Source of the DNA: Candidatus Moraniibacteriota bacterium | GTDB lineage: Bacteria > Patescibacteriota > Minisyncoccia > Moranbacterales > UBA2206 | Reading direction: 5' to 3' | Assembly (NCBI GenBank): GCA_049303795.1 | Contig: JBAQNM010000005.1 | Span: forward strand, 222,381 to 286,380 | DNA length: 64,000 nucleotides | Part shown: piece by piece, positions 12,694 to 48,347 of the stretch | Position numbering within the stretch: position 1 is the first letter of the stretch | How the letters are laid out: every line of letters starts with the position of its first letter | Made by a program: the position numbers and the translations under genes | The notes under the pieces: generated by a model | Database searches by the model: none | Told to the model about the DNA's origin: nothing | The model's input: only the letters and a program-made list of their open reading frames with translations

Positions 12694-13422
12694 TTATCTC
12701 AAGTAATGCTCCAGTGTATAAATCCAATTTTCATCATTTTCTCCATCAGCCTCTCTGGTTTTTATTTTTTCGTTCAATAACCATTGCAAATAATTGCGAT
12801 CACGCATTGCCACATCGGAAACTTTCATTCCGACATATTTCCCAAAATTAAATTTTTTCACAAGCACCGGACGCGCAGAAACGTTCAGCATTTCAGCAAT
12901 AACCGCTTCCTCGCTTCCAGCAACTTTTAACATCTTTTCAAAATAATGTTCAAATAATTTTTCCAACACACGAATATCACCCAGCGCGTTGTGCGCCGGC
13001 GCATCAAGAACATCCAGATCATGATAATAGCGCAAATATTGCATAGCATATCGAGGAATCTCCGCTTCAACATCCAAATATTGCGCCAACTTAAATGTAT
13101 CAATTGCTTGAGCAATTTCCAGGTTTTCCCGCCTGAGCATCTCCACATCAAACGGAGCATTATGCGCCACCAAAATATGCCCGGAAGAAAAAATTTCCAC
13201 TAAAGCTTTGTGCATTTCGGAATCAAGAAAAACTTCTTTATCGGCTACCATTTTATTGGTGATATGCGAAACAGCCATCGCATCAATTTCGATTGGCACG
13301 GGCGGTTTGAAAAGCGCTTCGGATTCCTGACCTTGAATTTTATAAGCCACTTGACACAAACGAGCTTCCGGACCGGTGCCGGTTGTTTCTGTATCTAAAA
13401 AAACTAATTTTGATTTATTCAT
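12694..13422 (-). CDS. DEDDh-family 3'-5' exonuclease (DnaQ/epsilon-like)
   Basis: Exo I motif FLDTETTG, Exo II motif HNAPFDVEML and Exo III motif HNALGDIRV. Confidence 0.7.
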   Translation of the reverse strand: MNKSKLVFLDTETTGTGPEARLCQVAYKIQGQESEALFKPPVPIEIDAMAVSHITNKMVADKEVFLDSEMHKALVEIFSSGHILVAHNAPFDVEMLRRENLEIAQAIDTFKLAQYLDVEAEIPRYAMQYLRYYHDLDVLDAPAHNALGDIRVLEKLFEHYFEKMLKVAGSEEAVIAEMLNVSARPVLVKKFNFGKYVGMKVSDVAMRDRNYLQWLLNEKIKTREADGENDENWIYTLEHYLR

Positions 13423-13492
13423 ATTTAAATTCTAACCTAAAAATTCTTTTTTAGCAAAATTTAAAAGGTCATTTATTTTTTATAAATGACCT

Positions 13493-13837
13493 TCATTCTA
13501 ACACTTCCCGCTGGTTGCAAAAACTGCAATCTTCCCCGATAACAACTAGCGTTCGTTCGATAATACCGACTAGACGCAAAAAATCATGACTAGAGCCTTG
13601 AAGCTCTATGCAAGTTCTGGCCTCTTGTCGTTCTGTAAGCAAGATTTCAATTTTCCGGTCTTTTCTCCAAATGCTACAACCCATGATAATTCCTCCACTG
13701 CCTCCAATATGTCCCAATGCCGATCCGCCTTGTATTCTTTCATCATATTCGACAACAATGCCACACGCCCTTAGGGCGTTAACCACCTCGATAACCGATT
13801 CAGCCACGAAAATTTCATGCCAATGATGCTTTTTCAT
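13493..13837 (-). CDS. hypothetical protein (Gly-rich HIGGSGGIIMG loop, C-terminal CSFC)
   Basis: ORF only; no family recognised. Confidence 0.3.
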   Translation of the reverse strand: MKKHHWHEIFVAESVIEVVNALRACGIVVEYDERIQGGSALGHIGGSGGIIMGCSIWRKDRKIEILLTERQEARTCIELQGSSHDFLRLVGIIERTLVVIGEDCSFCNQREVLE

Positions 13838-13971
13838 AGCTTACCTCCTTTATTTTTAAATGTACTTGATTTTGTTTATTTTTAATCCCTCCTATGAGTT
13901 ATTTTTTAGCATTCAGTCATTTTTTTTTCAAAATCATACTATCCTAGCACAAATAGCGATAAAAGCAAGCT

Positions 13972-14018
13972 TCCCCATAAAAAGAAAGGCGCTTAGCGTG
14001 TTTACACGACTAAGCGCC
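13972..14018 (-). terminator. intrinsic terminator downstream of the receiver-like gene cluster
   Basis: About 14-bp GC-containing stem (aggcgcttagcgtg..cacgactaagcgcct) followed on the minus strand by a T-run. Confidence 0.5.
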
Positions 14019-14050
14019 TAGATTAAACCAGTTTTCCTTTTTCCGAAAAA

Positions 14051-14413
14051 TCACTTCAACATAGAGGAGATTTTAGTCACAAGTTCTTCATCAGAAAATG
14101 GCCTTTCCAGGACGCCACAGCCTTCTGCGGTAGCGATGCTCCGCTTGCTGCTCACGCCAGAAATGCAAAGTATTCCGATTGGTTCTTTTTTTCGTTGAAT
14201 CTTTTTGACTTGATTGATATGATTAACCCCATCGGTAATTGACATTGTAAAATCAATCACGAATAGATCGACTTTGTTGCGAGGAGGATTTGTTTCGTTA
14301 AACTCAACAACTTCAAATCCTAGCTCAGTAAGAACATATTTGAGCGAGCCTGATTCACCTTTAACTAAGACGATGACTTTTTTCTTACTTCCCTTTTTTT
14401 TGGCCACTATCAT
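14051..14413 (-). CDS. stand-alone receiver (REC)-like domain protein, atypical N-terminal acidic pocket
   Basis: CheY-like layout: ..DLFVIDFTMSITDG.. (Asp at the phospho-acceptor position), ..GILCISG.., C-terminal ..GCGVLERPF; the N-terminal DD pocket is replaced by KGES. Confidence 0.5.
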   Translation of the reverse strand: MIVAKKKGSKKKVIVLVKGESGSLKYVLTELGFEVVEFNETNPPRNKVDLFVIDFTMSITDGVNHINQVKKIQRKKEPIGILCISGVSSKRSIATAEGCGVLERPFSDEELVTKISSMLK

Positions 14414-14452
14414 TCCCTCCTAGTTGAAAATTATAGTTTAGTTGCCTTGATT

Positions 14453-14659
14453 TTAAAACCATCGAGATAACGCCATTATTCTATCAACAAACCCTGAAGG
14501 CTTGTCAAAACCACTTGCTTTTTTGCAATTATCGCAGACGGCATGATCAGCATTTTCTTCATCTTCAGGGCTAAGTGAAACATGCACCCATACTTTATTT
14601 TCATTTTTCACTCGCCCGCAAAATGAGCAGACGAGAATTTTCTTGTTTGGATTAGTCAT
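14453..14659 (-). CDS. small zinc-ribbon protein (CxxC..CxxC)
   Basis: CSFCG and CDNCK pairs in 68 aa; overlaps the upstream REC gene by 4 nt, suggesting translational coupling. Confidence 0.45.
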   Translation of the reverse strand: MTNPNKKILVCSFCGRVKNENKVWVHVSLSPEDEENADHAVCDNCKKASGFDKPSGFVDRIMALSRWF

Positions 14660-15033
14660 ACCTCCTCCTCGAAATTAAACCGCCCGGGAAAGATCCTTTC
14701 CAGTTCTTGCTTGAAGTCATCGAAGTTGAATTTGCTTCTTAAAAATCCATTGCATCCATTTTCCAGATAATATTTCCGATGAAATCCAGAACTTGAAATA
14801 CCAATGATTTTTGTTTCCGGCTGAATCTCACTAGCCCTCTTCAAGAATTCAACCCCCTCTCCATTAAACATTTTCAAATCAATAATCAGCAAATCCACTT
14901 TTTCTTCAGAAATAACCTCCCAAGCCTTTTGGCAATCTAAGGAATAATGAAATCCATAATCTTCTTTTGATTTTAAAAATTTCTTTATAGCACTGACCAA
15001 TCGGGCCTGACCACAAACCAATAAAATTTTCAT
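14656..15033 (-). CDS. stand-alone receiver (REC)-like domain protein, DD pocket missing
   Basis: CheY-like ..VDLLIIDLKMFNGEG.., ..IIGISS.., ..GCNGFLRSKF; N-terminus is LLVCGQ instead of the DD motif. Confidence 0.55.
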   Translation of the reverse strand: MKILLVCGQARLVSAIKKFLKSKEDYGFHYSLDCQKAWEVISEEKVDLLIIDLKMFNGEGVEFLKRASEIQPETKIIGISSSGFHRKYYLENGCNGFLRSKFNFDDFKQELERIFPGRFNFEEEV

Positions 15034-15070
15034 CCCTCTTTTTACTCCCTCTTAATTTTAACCGCTTGCG

Positions 15071-15328
15071 TTATTGCTCTTTGTTATCCTTCGACATCGT
15101 AGCGATAGCCGTTTTTGCCAAGTTGGCTGCCAGCACTTTTTCCAAAAACATTGTTCCTTCCGGCATATCCAAATCAATTACAATTAAAGTCACTCTCTCG
15201 CCAGAATTAATTAAATCAAACGCCTCTTTAATTTCAGAAAAGAAAACCACGTCTTCATGATATAAGCGAAAACGATGAACTGCTTCTTTTTTTGCCTCAT
15301 CATCAACGCAAAATACTAAGGTTTTCAT
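15071..15328 (-). CDS. short (85-aa) receiver-like domain protein with an intact DDE pocket but truncated C-terminus
   Basis: VFCVDDE .. TLIVIDLDMPEG .. then ends, with no K-box or alpha-5 segment. Confidence 0.45.
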   Translation of the reverse strand: MKTLVFCVDDEAKKEAVHRFRLYHEDVVFFSEIKEAFDLINSGERVTLIVIDLDMPEGTMFLEKVLAANLAKTAIATMSKDNKEQ

Positions 15329-15432
15329 TTTTCCACCTCGCCTTCTTTCTATTTGATTGTCAAAGAAACAAAGAGCCCACCATTAGGCTCTCTGTGATAT
15401 ATAAACATACAATTTGACTCTGGTCAACAAAA

Positions 15433-16404
15433 TTACACGATTTTTGAATCATCCTCTGGTTCTATTGTTTCTTTCAGTTCCGGAGTTTTTCCGACTTTCT
15501 TTTTAAGAAAATGAAGTAAGATAAATTGTAAAATAATTGCGATAGCTATAGAGCTATACCAAAACCAAGAAAACTCGCGACACTCATCAAAGAAATACCA
15601 AAAAGCCACTGCCAGCACTGTCCAAGCTGCCGGGAATTTCCAGCCATAGTTCTCTTCGGTATATTTGCTTCGACTGTCCAGTCCAAGCGCACCGGCAAAA
15701 ACTACCAGCGCCAAAACCCAAATCCAGCTTGGCCAACTTTGACAAGCATCTTCTGTTCCAGCAATTTCCCCGCCGCCTTCTTCACCTTGCACACCACCAA
15801 CAGCAGATGTTGGAGTTGGCTCTTCATTTCCGGTAAAACCAGTTCTACCTTCCGCTGCCAAAATTTCCGCCTCTGTTCCAGCTCCGGCATTTTCCGATTC
15901 AATCGTAAAATCAATATCAAACTTAGTTTTCAGACCTTGATATTCATTGCCAGCATCTTCATCAAATTTAATTTTTATCTTATATCGCTCGCTTTCTCCG
16001 GTTGATAGATTATCCACATAAAGAGATTCGTCGTCTGCTTCCTTGAGATTCCAGCGATCACCAGCGCCACCGATTCGATAATCATTGTCTGAAGTGCGAA
16101 TAACATACAGCTTCAATTTTTTCGCTAATTTTTTATCCCCATTAACATCAAATTTAAAATAAAGATTAGTATCATCTGTTGTACTTCTATTTTTCACGCG
16201 AATTGTTTTGGAATCTTGCCAGCCGGGATAAATATTATCCGCATCAAAAATATCATCGCCATCGATATTTGTGCCCACCGGATATTCCACATCGATCTTA
16301 TCGACCGCCTTAGCTACATTTCCCAGAGATATAAAAGCTAAAACCAAACTCATCATGAGTAATGAAATTTTTCCTAATTTAAATTTTTCCATTCTATTTT
16401 TCAT
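15433..16404 (-). CDS. secreted protein with a beta-sandwich (TasA/camelysin-like?) N-domain, an acidic Gly-rich linker and three C-terminal TM helices
   Basis: Signal peptide, a ..IRVKNRSTTDDTNLYFKFDV.. beta-rich region, and a hydrophobic C-terminal anchor. Confidence 0.35.
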   Translation of the reverse strand: MKNRMEKFKLGKISLLMMSLVLAFISLGNVAKAVDKIDVEYPVGTNIDGDDIFDADNIYPGWQDSKTIRVKNRSTTDDTNLYFKFDVNGDKKLAKKLKLYVIRTSDNDYRIGGAGDRWNLKEADDESLYVDNLSTGESERYKIKIKFDEDAGNEYQGLKTKFDIDFTIESENAGAGTEAEILAAEGRTGFTGNEEPTPTSAVGGVQGEEGGGEIAGTEDACQSWPSWIWVLALVVFAGALGLDSRSKYTEENYGWKFPAAWTVLAVAFWYFFDECREFSWFWYSSIAIAIILQFILLHFLKKKVGKTPELKETIEPEDDSKIV

Positions 16405-20600: not shown

Positions 20601-21761
20601 TTAACGCTCAATGCCCAGTTTTTTAAGGATTTCCGGATCTGGGAAATTGTCGAACTGCATGCCAAATGACAATCCCATCATATCCAGAAGCTCCCCAACT
20701 TCTTTCAAGGATTTACGGCCAAAATTTTTCGTCTCCATCAAGTTCTCTCTGGTTCTTTGAGCCAGCTCACCGACAAGCTTGAAACCTCCTCCTCCGCCAC
20801 CGAGACAGTTTTTTGCCCGGATTGACAGATCAGTTTCTCCGATCAAGGTATACAGCCCCTCTACCGGAAGAACAACCCTTATATCTTCCTTGATGATCGG
20901 TGGGCCGCTGGCTATTATCTGATACAGCCCTTGCAATTTATTTTTTCTTACCAGATATCGCAGTTTCCGGAGGGCTTTATGGAAAATCTGCCTGATCCTT
21001 TCTTCGGTAACCATCAAATCATCCCCTATTGCAGAGTAAGTTTTCTGCTCACAGCCAAGGCCACAACGTCTCCTGACTACCAGGATTTCCCGCTTAGTTA
21101 AATTTTCCAGCACGCTTTCGATAGTGCTAACGGCATTGAGTTTCTCATCCCAGATCGCTCCGATCTTTCGCCTTTGCGAGTTGGCCCAGCTTTTTCGCAG
21201 ATCTTTTTTGAGATCTAGCGCATTTTGCGGGACATCCGACTCATCACTTTTCGTGTAAAGATTGAGATTATCATGCCAAAGCTCAGAAGCCTCATCTGAT
21301 TGGTTTCTGCCAAAAATCATTTCAATCAGATTAACATAAGTCTGATCTTCGGCTCTGGCTTGAGGTCGGCTCAATGTCGAGGCAATATCATCGAGAATCA
21401 AAAACTCTTTTTCGACCTCCTCGATACCTAGATACTCTCCCAGCAATTCCTTGAGCATATCATCGAGATCGCTTGATATTACAAGCTTATGACGCGCAGT
21501 CATCAGACATGCATAGAACTTCAGCGCCGATGCGAAAACCTCCTCTTTAGTTTTCTTTTTAGTTCGCTTTAATCCAAGGCGATCAAGATCCAACCTAAGT
21601 GTTGTCGGATTGAGATTCAACCTCTCGGAAATCCAACGGCTTGCGATGCCGATGGAATGAAGAACTGCGATGATTGGATGCCTTTTTTCCTGGTTATCTT
21701 TAATTTCTCCCATCTTGATATCCCCTTTTCCATGAGTATGATTGAGTGTTATGAAAATCAC
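20601..21761 (-). CDS. chimeric transcription factor: sigma-70 region 3/4-like segment fused to an RNA polymerase alpha-subunit C-terminal domain (alpha-CTD)-like domain
   Basis: LTKREILVVRRRCGLGCEQKTYSAIGDDLMVTEERIRQIFHKALRKLR matches sigma-70 region 4.2. LSIRAKNCL..LVGELAQRTRENLMETKNFGRKSLKEVGELLDMMGLSFGM..NFP closely matches the alpha-CTD helix-hairpin-helix of E. coli ([48 protein letters not shown]..NWP). No sigma region 2 is seen. GC-shifted. Confidence 0.6.
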   Translation of the reverse strand: MIFITLNHTHGKGDIKMGEIKDNQEKRHPIIAVLHSIGIASRWISERLNLNPTTLRLDLDRLGLKRTKKKTKEEVFASALKFYACLMTARHKLVISSDLDDMLKELLGEYLGIEEVEKEFLILDDIASTLSRPQARAEDQTYVNLIEMIFGRNQSDEASELWHDNLNLYTKSDESDVPQNALDLKKDLRKSWANSQRRKIGAIWDEKLNAVSTIESVLENLTKREILVVRRRCGLGCEQKTYSAIGDDLMVTEERIRQIFHKALRKLRYLVRKNKLQGLYQIIASGPPIIKEDIRVVLPVEGLYTLIGETDLSIRAKNCLGGGGGGFKLVGELAQRTRENLMETKNFGRKSLKEVGELLDMMGLSFGMQFDNFPDPEILKKLGIER

Positions 21762-21940: not shown

Positions 21941-23713
21941 ATGACAAATGACAAAAAAAATCTCAACAGTACCGAAATAAAAACTACTAATGCTGACCGA
22001 ACAAAAGCCAAAAAAGATCCAACGGAACAAAGATCGGAAAAATTGGACAAGATTAATCATAGCTTGTCTTCTTTTAACGCTCAAAATAATCAAAATATTG
22101 AAGAAGTTGAAAGTACTAGAAAACGAGAATTTGAAAGCAAGCTAGATCAACTAGGAATTGCAGAAATTCCAGTCAGCGAAGAAACGAAAAAGTTGATTCG
22201 TCAAAATATGGTGAGCGATACGATTGATCATGCGAAAAAAGAAAACGAACGTTTCGATCGACTTAAGATAGACAAAATAATTCTAGAGAATATAGACCAG
22301 CCAGATTCACAATTGATAAAAAGGCTTTTCGCAAAAAATGATGCTGAAATATCTGAAGATGTATTTCATAAAAGTCTAGAAAAATTAAGCAAGACAAATA
22401 TAAAATTAGAACCTCGCGAACGAATAGAAATTTTCCGCGAAGCGCTAGAATATTTTAGTAGGGAGGAAAAAGTGATCTACCCTGTTGGTCATGCTACAGG
22501 CTCTGATTCTCTTAGAATGATCATAAAAGATGGGTCTATTAAAGAAGGTGGCACCGGAGAACACGGAGAAGCTGCGGGACAATCTCGCGGAGGAAAACAG
22601 CAAGGCGTTTCCGTGGCGGAAATGAATCACGAAATGGCCGATTATGTCGAAATTTTTTATGCAAGAATGGCAGCAAATAGAGAAATTACAAAAGAAGCAT
22701 TAGAAATTGACGCAGATATTATTGATGGAAAAAATCCAATAGAAGACTTTATAGAAATTTATGTAGAGTTTACAGACACTGATAAGCTTCTAGGATCCAT
22801 GGCGAATAGAAGTGATAATGATATTGATTCTATAAAACTAAAAATCGCTCAAGAAATTGGAAAAAAACCTCGTGAAATAACTCATGAAGATATTAAAAAA
22901 AGCAAAATACTAGAGGAAATACTTTTTGGCTTCATAAAAAAAGCGGCGGGAAGAAAGCACTACATGACTGCAGAAAGAGCAAGTAGGGATTATGTCGCAT
23001 TTGATTCTATTATTAAAAACTGTGAGAAATGTAAGAATGGTGAATTTCCCGAAATAACCTTTAATGGAAAAATATATAAAGATCCTGATGAAATTATTAA
23101 TCTAAAACATGGAATATACGAACTTGAAGATGATGATCTGCCAGAAAAGAAAATACTGATTGAAATGCAGAACGAATACGCCTATTTTCTTCGACCATAT
23201 TTTGATCAAGAAAGTGGAGAATGGATGGAGCCACGCTATTCCATTTCTGAATTTAGATCTAGGAGTAGTGAAATATTGGGAGAATATGCAAAATGGATAA
23301 AAGAAGGAGAAACTTTCAAAACATTAACGATGCTTCACCCGCTAGAAAGCGACTCCGAAGATGTAAAAAGAAAAAAAATAGCGAGATTAAAGGAATTAGA
23401 TAATCAATTTCCTAGCATATTAGTCATTGAAGCAGATGAATATAAAAAAAATGGCCTAACGCATACGGAAAAAGAAGGAAGTCGTCCAGTCCCCTTTTTT
23501 GAGGTTGAAGAAAGAATTATGTCTGATATTTCTCTTTCAAACATTAAAGAAATAATAATTCCAAGATCAAAAATCGATGAAATAAAAAAGTGGCTGACAG
23601 AATCTGGAATCAAAGAAAACAATATGCCAAGAATGGTCGCATTTGAATACTTTGAAATTAAACGCCTATTAAACCATCAATTAAAAGAGCTTACAAGAAA
23701 AATCCAAGCGTAG
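21941..23713 (+). CDS. hypothetical 590-aa Lys/Glu-rich protein
   Basis: Long ORF with no recognised family; the stop codon overlaps the 3' end of tRNA-Glu on the opposite strand. Confidence 0.45.
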   Translation: MTNDKKNLNSTEIKTTNADRTKAKKDPTEQRSEKLDKINHSLSSFNAQNNQNIEEVESTRKREFESKLDQLGIAEIPVSEETKKLIRQNMVSDTIDHAKKENERFDRLKIDKIILENIDQPDSQLIKRLFAKNDAEISEDVFHKSLEKLSKTNIKLEPRERIEIFREALEYFSREEKVIYPVGHATGSDSLRMIIKDGSIKEGGTGEHGEAAGQSRGGKQQGVSVAEMNHEMADYVEIFYARMAANREITKEALEIDADIIDGKNPIEDFIEIYVEFTDTDKLLGSMANRSDNDIDSIKLKIAQEIGKKPREITHEDIKKSKILEEILFGFIKKAAGRKHYMTAERASRDYVAFDSIIKNCEKCKNGEFPEITFNGKIYKDPDEIINLKHGIYELEDDDLPEKKILIEMQNEYAYFLRPYFDQESGEWMEPRYSISEFRSRSSEILGEYAKWIKEGETFKTLTMLHPLESDSEDVKRKKIARLKELDNQFPSILVIEADEYKKNGLTHTEKEGSRPVPFFEVEERIMSDISLSNIKEIIIPRSKIDEIKKWLTESGIKENNMPRMVAFEYFEIKRLLNHQLKELTRKIQA

Positions 23714-23782
23714 CCTCAAGGGGAATCGGACCCCTGTTTTCAGGATGAGAACCTGATGTCCTAGCCGCTAGACGATGAGGCC
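23711..23782 (-). tRNA. tRNA-Glu (anticodon CTC)
   Basis: Reverse complement reads GGCCTCATCGTCTAGCGGCTAGGACATCAGGTTCTCATCCTGAAAACAGGGGTCCGATTCCCCTTGAGGCTA: 7-bp acceptor stem, D-arm, anticodon loop TTCTCAT and T-arm GGTCCGATTCC. No encoded CCA. Confidence 0.85.
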
Positions 23783-45767: not shown

Positions 45768-48347
45768 TTATTTAAAACTCTTAACTATGCCCTGAAATTC
45801 ATCTCCTTTTTCTTCAAAATTCTTCCAAAGACTATAGCTTGGAGAAGCCATTGAAAGTAAGCATATTTTTCCAATCTTCGTATTCAAAAAAGCAAAATTG
45901 ACAGCTTCTTTCATGTTTTTTGTATGTATTGTTGTATATTTTTTGTTAGATTTTTGAAGAAGTATTTTTTCAATCTCTGTGCCGCTATCTGGAAAAAAAA
46001 CAATATTTCTTATTTTAGATTTATCAATTTCAATCGCCAAGCCAGAAAAATCATACCCTCGATTAAGCCCCCCTAAAAAAATCGTGTCCACATCGGAAAG
46101 TGTTTTGATTGCTTCAATAGTAGCCTCAGGAATTGTTGCGTTAGCATCATCATAAAATTTTATTCCCTTGAATTCTCCCACAAATTCCAAGCGATGCGGA
46201 AGATTTTTAAAACTTTCGACGCCTTTTTTAATTATCCTCTTTGGAATTTTTAGAATATTAGCAACAGCAATCGCCGCTTTGGCATTTTCCATATTATGCG
46301 CACCCAAAAGCGAAGCTTTTATATTTGCTAAATTAATTTTACTAAAATCATCTGTATTTGTTTTTTTAGCCCATTTTTTTAGCTCTTTATTTTTTCCATT
46401 ATATACAAAATGATCTTCGCGATTTTGAAAATTAATAATATTTTTTTTCGCTGCATAATATTTTTCAACACTGCCATGATAATTCATATGCTCAGGAAAA
46501 AGATTTATTACAACAGAAATATGTGGAGAGTATTTCAGATCATCTAGTTGATAGCTAGAAAGCTCTATGATAAAAATTTCATTCTCATCAATCGGTTTTA
46601 ATAAAACTTCCAACATCGGACTGCCAATGTTACCAATCAAGCGCACCTTCTTCCCGGCCTCTTTTAGAATGGCATAAATCAAAGAGGCTGTCGTGCTTTT
46701 CCCCTTACTTCCGGTCACTCCAATCGTAATATTTTTTATTTGCGAGAAAAAGATGTTAGTCGCCGTAGTATAAGGAATTTTAACCAAATTTTTATTTATT
46801 CCCGGTGATTTTATTGCAAAATCGCAATCTTCCTGTCTTTTTAGGTAATTCTTGTCTAACTTTTGGTCAGCAATAATATATTCTTTTTTTGGATAAAGTT
46901 TTTTTAAAAATTTTAAACTAGCCCTACCTTCAAGCCCATAGCCTAAGATCAATATTTTTCGCCTATCTTCAAAATCATCCAACTCTATACTTGTTTTTTT
47001 AATCATAGCGAGAAATTTTTCAGGAATATTGTTTTCTTCTGAAAAGCCTAATAATTTTTTACTTAAACCTATTTGATCTATTTTTTCAAATAATCCCACT
47101 TTTTCAAAAAATTTAATAACCCCAGCATCTCCAAATTCATTTTTTAAATAAGTCTTTCTTAAGGCCAACTTCATTTCTTCTGCTGTTCCCACACACTCAA
47201 AGGGTTTTATTCTTTTTAAACCTAATAATTCTTCAAATGTTGGCAATAATTTTTTATCCTCAAACAAACTCTTACCAAAAATATCCAACAATTCTTTTTT
47301 AGAAAGATAAGCAGAAAGCATCGTGAAAACAAATACACATTTAGGACAGTGTCCACACCATCTCTTGCCTACTAGATCATCTTTTATTTTAAAATTGGCG
47401 TTACAGCTAGAAAAAGTTTTAAAATATTTTTTATATTTGGAAAAAATCTCCACGATTTTGATTTCACTCAAAGGACGTAGAATTGAAAAGTATAAAACAT
47501 CAGTAGCTATATATTCTTTGACATAATTAGAAAACATTTTTTCAGCCAAAAAAGATTTACTCCACTGATGATTAACCCATCTGCCTAAATATTCTATATT
47601 ACCCTGGCTGGCACTATTTTCGTTAGCAGAAATGATATAACGATAATCATAGATAACAGCTGTAAAAAGACCGATAAATGCCCATTGCAGAGAAACTGGC
47701 ACATGCCCATTATATGCGTCTGGCTTATTTCTGAATTCTAATAATTTTTTATCTAATTCTCTTTTTACCACTATCTTTTTTCCGCCCACCAATGCGGCAA
47801 CTTCTTTTTGAATCTCGGCTTCATTAACAGAAAAAACAGTAAAATCTTTCGCAATTTTTTTCAAGAGTTCCATCGCTACAATAGAATCTTTGCCTCCACC
47901 ATTCATCACAAGCAATCGATCCTGCATTTTTGTTTTTATTGCTTTAGGTTTGTATTTATCATCATAAGAAAAATTAACTAGCCCACGATAATCGATTTTA
48001 TTTTTATAAAAAAATTCACCCATCCCCTCGGTATAAACTAAATTCCAAAATTCAGCCTGCTGCTTAGAAAGTTTAATATTATTTAAAATTATTTTTGAGG
48101 GACAATAAATCTTCCAATAGCTTAAGCCTAAAACCAAATGCAAACCGTCTAATATATTTTTTTGCAAATTTTCATCGAGCTTATTTTCCAAAAAGCCTTT
48201 TTTTGGAAAATATAAGGTTTCACAAAACATATATTTATCTGTTCCTTTTTTCAATCCATAATCAAAAGACAAAGTTGCCTTTGTCTTATCAATTCTATAG
48301 CCTAAAAACTCAAAAATTCCTCCGGTTTGCTTCATATTTTTACCCAT
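45768..48347 (-). CDS. bifunctional fusion: N-terminal PP-loop ATP-pyrophosphatase-like domain (MurL-like?) + C-terminal Mur ligase (MurD-type UDP-MurNAc-L-Ala:Glu ligase)
   Basis: N-terminal about 450 aa with SGGxDS-type PP-loop (LVMNGGGKDSIVA) and a CGHCPKC cysteine cluster. C-terminal about 400 aa with a Mur ligase P-loop GVTGSKGKSTTASL and MurD-like layout (ILILGYGLEGRA.. N-terminal Rossmann). Confidence 0.6.
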   Translation of the reverse strand: MGKNMKQTGGIFEFLGYRIDKTKATLSFDYGLKKGTDKYMFCETLYFPKKGFLENKLDENLQKNILDGLHLVLGLSYWKIYCPSKIILNNIKLSKQQAEFWNLVYTEGMGEFFYKNKIDYRGLVNFSYDDKYKPKAIKTKMQDRLLVMNGGGKDSIVAMELLKKIAKDFTVFSVNEAEIQKEVAALVGGKKIVVKRELDKKLLEFRNKPDAYNGHVPVSLQWAFIGLFTAVIYDYRYIISANENSASQGNIEYLGRWVNHQWSKSFLAEKMFSNYVKEYIATDVLYFSILRPLSEIKIVEIFSKYKKYFKTFSSCNANFKIKDDLVGKRWCGHCPKCVFVFTMLSAYLSKKELLDIFGKSLFEDKKLLPTFEELLGLKRIKPFECVGTAEEMKLALRKTYLKNEFGDAGVIKFFEKVGLFEKIDQIGLSKKLLGFSEENNIPEKFLAMIKKTSIELDDFEDRRKILILGYGLEGRASLKFLKKLYPKKEYIIADQKLDKNYLKRQEDCDFAIKSPGINKNLVKIPYTTATNIFFSQIKNITIGVTGSKGKSTTASLIYAILKEAGKKVRLIGNIGSPMLEVLLKPIDENEIFIIELSSYQLDDLKYSPHISVVINLFPEHMNYHGSVEKYYAAKKNIINFQNREDHFVYNGKNKELKKWAKKTNTDDFSKINLANIKASLLGAHNMENAKAAIAVANILKIPKRIIKKGVESFKNLPHRLEFVGEFKGIKFYDDANATIPEATIEAIKTLSDVDTIFLGGLNRGYDFSGLAIEIDKSKIRNIVFFPDSGTEIEKILLQKSNKKYTTIHTKNMKEAVNFAFLNTKIGKICLLSMASPSYSLWKNFEEKGDEFQGIVKSFK

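Follow-up and report, generated by a model that had tools for sequence, protein, structure and literature searches.

We analyzed a compact gene cassette in a 64,000-nt stretch of a contig from Candidatus Moraniibacteriota, a lineage of the candidate phyla radiation (CPR/Patescibacteria). This stretch is called the window throughout, all positions are given in its numbering, and it matches metagenome-assembled genomes (MAGs) that carry the same lineage name. Four co-oriented minus-strand open reading frames (ORFs) of 85, 125, 68 and 118/120 amino acids make up the cassette, and we refer to their products as half-REC (a half-receiver), PsR-A, ZnR and PsR-B. With middling confidence, we read the functional core of the cassette as a split atypical response regulator together with tandemly duplicated, diverged receiver paralogues. 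PsR-A would be the regulatory part of this regulator, and ZnR, a putative zinc-ribbon protein, would be its partner or output part. The two would be produced from translationally coupled genes in the window and as a single fused polypeptide in a third lineage.

Among the cassette proteins of the window, PsR-A is the only one above the gathering score of the Pfam family Response_reg (PF00072; 30.2 bits), which it matches at 45.5 bits. A profile search with PsR-A returned two other orthologues only, one at 63% identity on a contig of a sister lineage (L008) and one at 50% identity on a contig of a more distant lineage (L009). The latter orthologue, P0006, was modeled by AlphaFold2 (AF2) with a predicted local distance difference test score (pLDDT) of 80 and shows a (beta-alpha)5 topology of five strand-helix units. 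Foldseek matched this model to receiver domains in the PDB at E 1e-8, with TM scores of 0.83-0.87 (normalized to the target) and a root-mean-square deviation of ~2 Å. Through this 50%-identical orthologue the complete (beta-alpha)5 fold was found for PsR-A; it was not found for half-REC. PsR-B scores 23.0 bits in Response_reg, under the gathering score, and matches PDB response regulators over residues 23-119 at E 2.8e-5; its identity to the canonical receivers encoded on L008 and L009 is 33-35%, and these receivers reach 70-78 bits in Pfam. For half-REC, the Response_reg match is again under the gathering score (18.6 bits, E 0.0022) and covers profile positions 1-81 of 111, while hhalign against a local receiver profile gave a probability of 78% at E 1.9e-5. 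No PDB match to half-REC was obtained by phmmer, and among its paralogues PsR-A comes closest, with 69 aa aligned at 35% identity. The assignment of half-REC as a receiver fragment, made from these profile comparisons, thus has moderate support. A sequence-only reading that preceded our analysis had described three of the proteins as receivers and had noted that alignments might place them outside the CheY fold; the profile match of PsR-A, the model of its orthologue and the PDB matches of PsR-B speak for that fold. All receiver-like members of the cassette are mutual paralogues at 27-35% identity, and therefore the cassette has grown by tandem duplication.

We read the active-site residues of each protein by alignment with E. 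coli CheY. PsR-A has C7/G8 in place of the acidic DD pair, retains D52 and S80, and is missing the conserved Lys (RSKF here, RSQF in a relative). In PsR-B, the DD pair is replaced by K and G, D53 and the Ser are kept, and the Lys has become Arg (ERPF). Half-REC contains D9, D10, E11, D52 and the Thr, and its chain ends after beta4, without the alpha4-beta5-alpha5 segment and without the Lys. D52 of PsR-A, D53 of PsR-B and D52 of half-REC all align with CheY D57, which is the sole invariant Asp column, so that none of the three is an aspartate-less receiver (ALR). The full five-residue active site (DD, D, T/S, K) is absent from all three receivers of the window, and all five residues are present in the receivers of 135 aa on L008 and 120 aa on L009. 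These alignments bear out the earlier description of the 85-aa protein as a C-terminally truncated receiver with a DDE pocket and an acceptor Asp, and of the 125-aa and 120-aa proteins as receivers that keep the acceptor Asp without the acidic pair, to which the loss of the Lys can now be added. With three of the five catalytic residues gone, PsR-A and PsR-B are, on their sequences, pseudo-receivers by the definition given in PMC12632262. Because they lack both the Mg2+-binding acidic pair and the Lys, the two proteins are most likely non-phosphorylatable.

The gene that follows PsR-A encodes a protein with four cysteines arranged as C11-x2-C14 and C42-x2-C45, which agrees with the earlier claim of a 68-aa CxxC..CxxC protein between the receivers. 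We regard ZnR as a putative Cys4 zinc ribbon, with zinc binding predicted from this motif pattern and from an AF2 model that has pLDDT 80-86 over residues 11-50 and short strands at each knuckle. No Pfam family, zinc-ribbon families included, attains its cut-off on ZnR. A k-mer search of 5.8 billion proteins found no relative, and an exhaustive phmmer search of 1.84 billion representative proteins returned only ZnR itself. A homologue surfaced solely as the tail of the PsR-A orthologue P0006: this 179-aa protein of the L009 lineage is a PsR-A::zinc-ribbon fusion in which the C-terminal 50 aa form the ZnR-like part. ZnR and the P0006 tail are 41% identical over 46 aa (pairwise E 5e-10), with all four Cys conserved along with VCSFCG, W-V, DEE and CD-CKK. 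In the window, the start of ZnR overlaps the stop of PsR-A by 4 nt (ATGA, 14656..14659), and the Shine-Dalgarno sequence of ZnR, GAGGAGGAGG, sits within the last PsR-A codons. Since the two genes are fused in one lineage, and overlap with the ribosome-binding site inside the last PsR-A codons in the other, PsR-A and ZnR are best read as one split protein, an atypical response regulator divided over two genes. PsR-A and ZnR may bind each other, as the fusion suggests.

The two related loci place this pair in a wider arrangement. Gene order in the window is hairpin, half-REC (85 aa), PsR-A, ZnR, PsR-B, terminator. On L008 it is hairpin, half-REC (65 aa), PsR-A, canonical receiver (REC, 135 aa), PsR-B, terminator, and on L009 it is hairpin, PsR-A::ZnR fusion, canonical REC (120 aa), terminator. 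The 135-aa receiver of L008 carries DDE, D, S and KPF. Its half-REC gene has a 1-bp deletion, and the resulting frameshift leaves 65 aa; its PsR-B orthologue is 82% identical to that of the window and starts with GTG, and its ExoX is 93% identical. DNA homology between window and L008 is continuous but for window 14698..14438 against L008 4222..4679, and this broken segment is exactly the ZnR gene in the window against the canonical receiver gene in L008. The simplest history compatible with these three loci would be an ancestor with PsR-A, ZnR, REC and PsR-B, from which the window lineage lost the canonical REC and the L008 lineage lost ZnR. Wider scans with the PsR-A alignment over GTDB species genomes, JGI metagenomes and viral contigs gave generic receivers or nothing. 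One match from these scans (L015) was inspected as a possible relative of the cassette and was ruled out, being an ordinary multi-domain response regulator. Six contigs that carry the cassette are 100% identical, so there is no population polymorphism to read.

We used the divergence between the loci to ask how the genes are maintained, expressed as the ratio of nonsynonymous to synonymous substitution rates (dN/dS) and the deficit of nonsynonymous changes. Between the window and L008, dN/dS is 0.09 for PsR-A (nonsynonymous deficit p = 1.7e-10), 0.16 for PsR-B (p = 1.5e-8) and 0.33 for half-REC (p = 0.004, first 64 codons), as compared with 0.05-0.06 for housekeeping neighbors. For ZnR, compared with the L009 fusion, the nonsynonymous deficit has p = 6.5e-4. 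By these substitution patterns all four genes are under purifying selection, and therefore the pseudo-receivers and ZnR can be taken as maintained genes. With homologues and significant deficits of this kind, the ORFs are more than chance. Half-REC is read as a truncated receiver relic in which the first ~64 residues keep some constraint and the 3' end is free to decay. The receiver fold, the lost catalytic residues and the purifying selection together support the earlier suggestion of a pseudo-receiver or protein-protein switch module.

The borders of the cassette were defined by two hairpins (Table 1). The 3' intrinsic terminator consists of a hairpin at 14018..13988 and a T-run at 13987..13977; a 96-nt fold has a minimum free energy of -32.3 kcal/mol and z = -4.1, and a homologous hairpin closes the cassette in L008 and L009. 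The 5' hairpin folds with z = -2.9, is nearly identical in L008 and is present at the very start of L009. Since the cassette is bounded on both sides by elements that are conserved in both related loci, it is, as far as such elements tell, a discrete transcription unit and not the tail of the upstream operon. Within the unit, a GGAGG-type Shine-Dalgarno motif, read from the sequence, precedes every one of the four genes. The earlier picture of tightly packed, co-oriented genes with a strong terminator holds, except that the 4-nt overlap occurs at the 125-aa/68-aa junction only, with gaps of 37 and 39 nt at the other two. For the last gene, the GTG at 14407 is the probable start, which gives 118 aa, because the Shine-Dalgarno spacing is better there, gene callers chose this start on two related contigs (L005 and L006) and the L008 orthologue has a GTG start.

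Table 1. Positions of the cassette genes and of the hairpins that border them in the window.
Feature	Position	Strand	Description
5' boundary hairpin, terminator-like	15368..15395	-	ACAGAGAGCCTAATGGTGGGCTCTTTGT, then T-rich run and TTGACA; found by terminator scan
Half-receiver (half-REC), 85 aa	15071..15328	-	Putative beta1-beta4 of a receiver domain
PsR-A, 125 aa	14656..15033	-	Single-domain pseudo-receiver (by sequence); conserved cassette core
ZnR, 68 aa	14453..14659	-	Putative Cys4 zinc-ribbon protein; start overlaps PsR-A stop
PsR-B, 120 aa (probably 118)	14051..14413	-	Single-domain pseudo-receiver (by sequence); diverged paralogue of the relatives' canonical receiver
3' intrinsic terminator	13977..14018	-	GGCGCTTAG-TCGTGTAAACACG-CTAAGCGCC, then TTTCTTTTTAT

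The DNA on the 5' side of the cassette (window 15396..15432, minus strand; L008 3490..3530; L009 1..45) is better conserved than adjacent coding DNA. It contains, in order, TTGACC, 17 nt, TTATAT (preceded by TG), the hairpin and TTGACA; the TTGACC-17-TTATAT arrangement is conserved but non-canonical. This promoter-like element just ahead of a terminator-like hairpin could form a leader or attenuator, or the hairpin could simply be a shared terminator. A consensus scan gave no convincing sigma-70 promoter for the unit, and no Rfam match, as would mark a leader RNA or riboswitch, was found in window 13300..15800.

PsR-A and PsR-B most likely act via contacts with other proteins, and would probably do so by pairing with receiver paralogues. 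In the relatives, an unlinked kinase would phosphorylate the canonical receiver, which would relay the signal by pairing with a pseudo-receiver. In the window genome, where the canonical receiver would have been lost and only non-phosphorylatable paralogues left, the module would probably work independently of phosphorylation and would probably be controlled by abundance or by other ligands.

Several observations weigh against this scheme. The cassette is known from three lineages, and the evolutionary reconstruction rests on correspondingly few data, with L009 being a contig of 1.85 kb. The acceptor Asp and the Ser are present in PsR-A and PsR-B alike, which may permit some unusual phospho-chemistry. 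The linker of the fusion protein (residues 121-132) has pLDDT <50 in the AF2 model, whose predicted TM score (pTM) is 0.63, and there is no confident docking of the two parts. The ZnR model shows no likeness to anything of known function, since Foldseek returned nothing under E 0.24. By sequence, the top match in the PDB is the zinc ribbon of TFIIS, which is non-significant (E 0.08). In this non-significant match, the invariant DEE loop of ZnR aligns with the catalytic DE loop of TFIIS. A bolder version of the split regulator, in which the zinc ribbon is an effector on the transcription machinery gated by paralogous receivers that pair with PsR-A and that are phosphorylatable in the relatives but dead in the window, would amount to an undescribed kinase-independent regulator; we consider it a long shot. 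If it were true, a reduced-genome bacterium would possess a signaling switch freed of kinase input.

The neighboring genes suggest another role. Almost all genes of the window lie on the minus strand, and its GC content is ~36%. Directly upstream of the cassette and on the same strand are genes for a TasA/camelysin-like protein whose signal peptide is of the SipW type, SipW, a lamin-tail-domain (LTD) protein and a 323-aa membrane-anchored protein. The SipW- and TasA-like identities assigned by the sequence-only reading were recovered by profile searches, at E 3.9e-36 for SipW against TIGR02228, over its cut-off, and at E 1.3e-12 for the TasA/camelysin-like protein against Peptidase_M73. The cassette could then be a dedicated regulator of the surface-fiber operon next to it, as had been guessed. 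The same adjacency is seen in L008, and response regulators with TackOD1 domains in thaumarchaeal pilus loci offer a loose precedent (PMC5847659). However, the conserved terminator-like hairpin parts the two units, and no DNA-binding domain was detected in the cassette. The adjacency shared with L008 is uninformative, because L008 is collinear with the window over >15 kb that include housekeeping genes, and in L008 an extra 138-aa coiled-coil gene intervenes between the two units. At L009 the downstream neighbor differs and the upstream side lies beyond the 1.85-kb contig, so that this more distant locus is too short to tell. Control of the SipW/TasA-like genes by the cassette is possible but unsupported, and we think a dedicated regulator of this kind unlikely.

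Some of these neighbors are of interest in their own right. The 138-aa protein (L008 3073..3489) has tandem VDVAELKSDVSVLK repeats and a weak match to the Lpp leucine zipper, is absent from the window and is encoded by a gene inserted between that for the 334-aa membrane protein and the cassette. The 323-aa protein (15433..16404, minus strand) has no family match; it carries a signal sequence at its N terminus, a linker rich in Gly and Glu, and a conserved membrane segment at its C terminus. Unlike its neighbors, it evolves fast (51% identity, dN/dS 0.58 against L008). A 386-aa protein (20601..21761, minus strand) joins sigma-70 region 4 (E 1.9e-11) to the C-terminal domain of the RNA polymerase alpha subunit (E 6.2e-14), an unusual pairing, and, being encoded just upstream of the TasA/SipW-like genes, could be their regulator. 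Downstream of the cassette are a 114-aa protein without a family match, an ExoX-like exonuclease and isoprenoid genes. The 114-aa protein (13493..13837, minus strand) has its own terminator (13494..13464), matches nothing in Pfam or NCBIfam and has a CSFCN motif at its end. The protein is kept in L008 (53% identity, dN/dS 0.29) and is absent beside the L009 cassette.

Alternatively, the genes could be debris without function, left by a two-component system in decay as the genome is reduced. Two-component systems are scarce in CPR genomes (PMC10805038), two of the proteins have lost catalytic residues, the 85-aa gene is truncated and is frameshifted further in L008, gene content varies among three close lineages, and the family is extremely narrow. 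Decay of this kind would not be expected to leave the significant purifying selection seen on all four genes (dN/dS 0.09 for PsR-A and 0.16 for PsR-B), nor intact reading frames with strong ribosome-binding sites, nor a conserved hairpin on the promoter side together with a conserved terminator. We judge the debris account improbable as a whole, and decay plausible only toward the 3' end of the gene for half-REC.

If instead the half-receiver or the pseudo-receivers still accept phosphoryl groups, then the cassette would be an atypical phosphorelay, as the sequence-only reading had also proposed, or a phosphate sink, fed in either case by an unlinked kinase. The acceptor Asp and the Ser or Thr are kept in all three proteins, the half-receiver retains its DD pair, and a fully canonical receiver in the relatives' cassettes implies a kinase somewhere in those genomes. 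Phosphotransfer in receivers, on the other hand, requires Mg2+ bound by the DD pair (PMC12632262), and neither PsR-A nor PsR-B has the Lys or either of the two acidic residues that bind the metal; in the half-receiver, which is without beta5, alpha5 and the Lys, a complete active site cannot form. The cassette of the window is thus left without a complete phosphorylation-competent receiver. None of the ORFs scanned across the 64 kb carries a HisKA, HATPase_c or Hpt domain, and none turned up in the annotated flanks of L008 and two further contigs (L001 and L007). This extends to the whole window the earlier observation that no kinase or Hpt lies near the cassette. CPR MAGs average 0.289 histidine kinases (HK) for every 100 genes, and HK are missing altogether from 19% of them (PMC10805038). 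Because CPR genomes are so poor in HK, finding no kinase nearby carries little weight, with ~0.2 expected in a window of ~60 genes. Taking the residues and the missing relay partners together, we hold a phosphorelay or sink to be decidedly unlikely.

Two further candidates fell away on direct comparison. A ClpXP-adaptor-like module, in which ZnR mimics the N-terminal zinc-binding domain of ClpX and the receivers act like CpdR or RssB, is suggested by the CSFCG motif and the second (I/V)CD(E/N)C knuckle, by a match of Pfam zf-C4_ClpX to ZnR (E 0.0028) and by CpdR and RssB among the generic NCBIfam receiver matches, but we rejected it as very remote: the match (PF06689) spans 13 residues at 18 bits against a cut-off of 27, the fused homologue P0006 does worse (E 0.065), ClpX zinc-binding domains in the PDB reach only E >=1 by sequence and are absent among the Foldseek matches, and the cysteine pairs are spaced 27 residues apart in ZnR as against ~18-19 in the ClpX domain. 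A role in anti-phage defense was likewise rejected, since PADLOC gave no credible matches, the single one being DrmB for P0006 at E 0.0099.

Away from the cassette, we noted several features of the window. A 590-aa ORF on the minority strand (21941..23713, plus strand) has no Pfam match, is conserved on related contigs and is abutted at its end by tRNA-Glu (23710..23782). An 859-aa MurL-type protein (45768..48347, minus strand) joins a Mur ligase to an epimerase domain and adjoins tRNA-Ile, tRNA-Ala and DNA polymerase III alpha. The segment 51635..62927 holds a hydrogenase cluster in a CPR genome, with a NiFe large subunit, an Oxidored_q6 small subunit, HypD, HypE-like and HypF-like maturation genes and NuoF/NuoG-like iron-sulfur proteins, and with a matrixin-like peptidase and an AAA ATPase interspersed. 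GC skew is about -0.2 throughout the window except in the plus-strand gene regions at 22-24 kb and 42-46 kb.

How CPR bacteria, with their very few kinases, regulate their activities is poorly understood, and so is the way in which bacterial pseudo-receivers are turned on and off (PMC12632262). The three close lineages provide a compact natural comparison of a pseudo-receiver, a zinc ribbon that is separate or fused, a canonical receiver and its dead paralogue. If the proposed pairings are true, then this comparison would show a phospho-signaling module in the course of becoming phosphorylation-independent. The practical value is limited by the tiny size of the family and by its occurrence in uncultured organisms.

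Set beside known systems, the cassette is a lineage-specific version of known kinds of regulator and not a new kind of system. Its closest counterparts are the bacterial pseudo-receivers, which make up several percent of ~2 million known receivers and which, like PsR-A and PsR-B, are presumed to act without phosphorylation (PMC12632262). Unlike those, the cassette groups two different pseudo-receivers and a truncated receiver in one small operon; its pseudo-receivers keep the Asp and Ser and have lost the DD pair and Lys, and one of them is paired with or fused to an uncharacterized zinc ribbon, not a known output domain. CheY, Spo0F, DivK and CpdR are also single-domain receivers of ~120 aa that act via protein-protein contacts, and the canonical receivers of L008 and L009 (120-135 aa) are of this type, whereas the window copies lack the catalytic residues and have no chemotaxis, sporulation or cell-cycle partners nearby. 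For pairing between such proteins, the BldM-WhiI system of Streptomyces offers a parallel: the two are atypical orphan response regulators that work by pairing as a heterodimer instead of through a cognate kinase (PMC4125116). They differ from the cassette in that each has a DNA-binding output domain and the two are encoded separately, while pairing in the cassette is itself our proposal. The archaeal output domains HalOD1, NitrOD1-5 and TackOD1 are small, have a narrow phyletic range and occur both stand-alone and fused to REC domains, and truncated and frameshifted REC domains were noted in the same archaeal census (PMC5847659). TackOD1, a Cys-rich, zinc-ribbon-like domain found in type IV pilus (surface-appendage) loci (PMC5847659), resembles ZnR in kind and not in family: it has 11 Cys, whereas ZnR has only four, in two CxxC motifs within ~45 residues, and no sequence relationship is detectable. 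The cassette also differs from these archaeal arrangements in belonging to a CPR bacterium and in the kind of receiver attached, a pseudo-receiver. What is new here is an unclassified zinc-ribbon partner, its attachment to a pseudo-receiver instead of a true receiver, and the pattern of probable reciprocal gene loss between the lineages.

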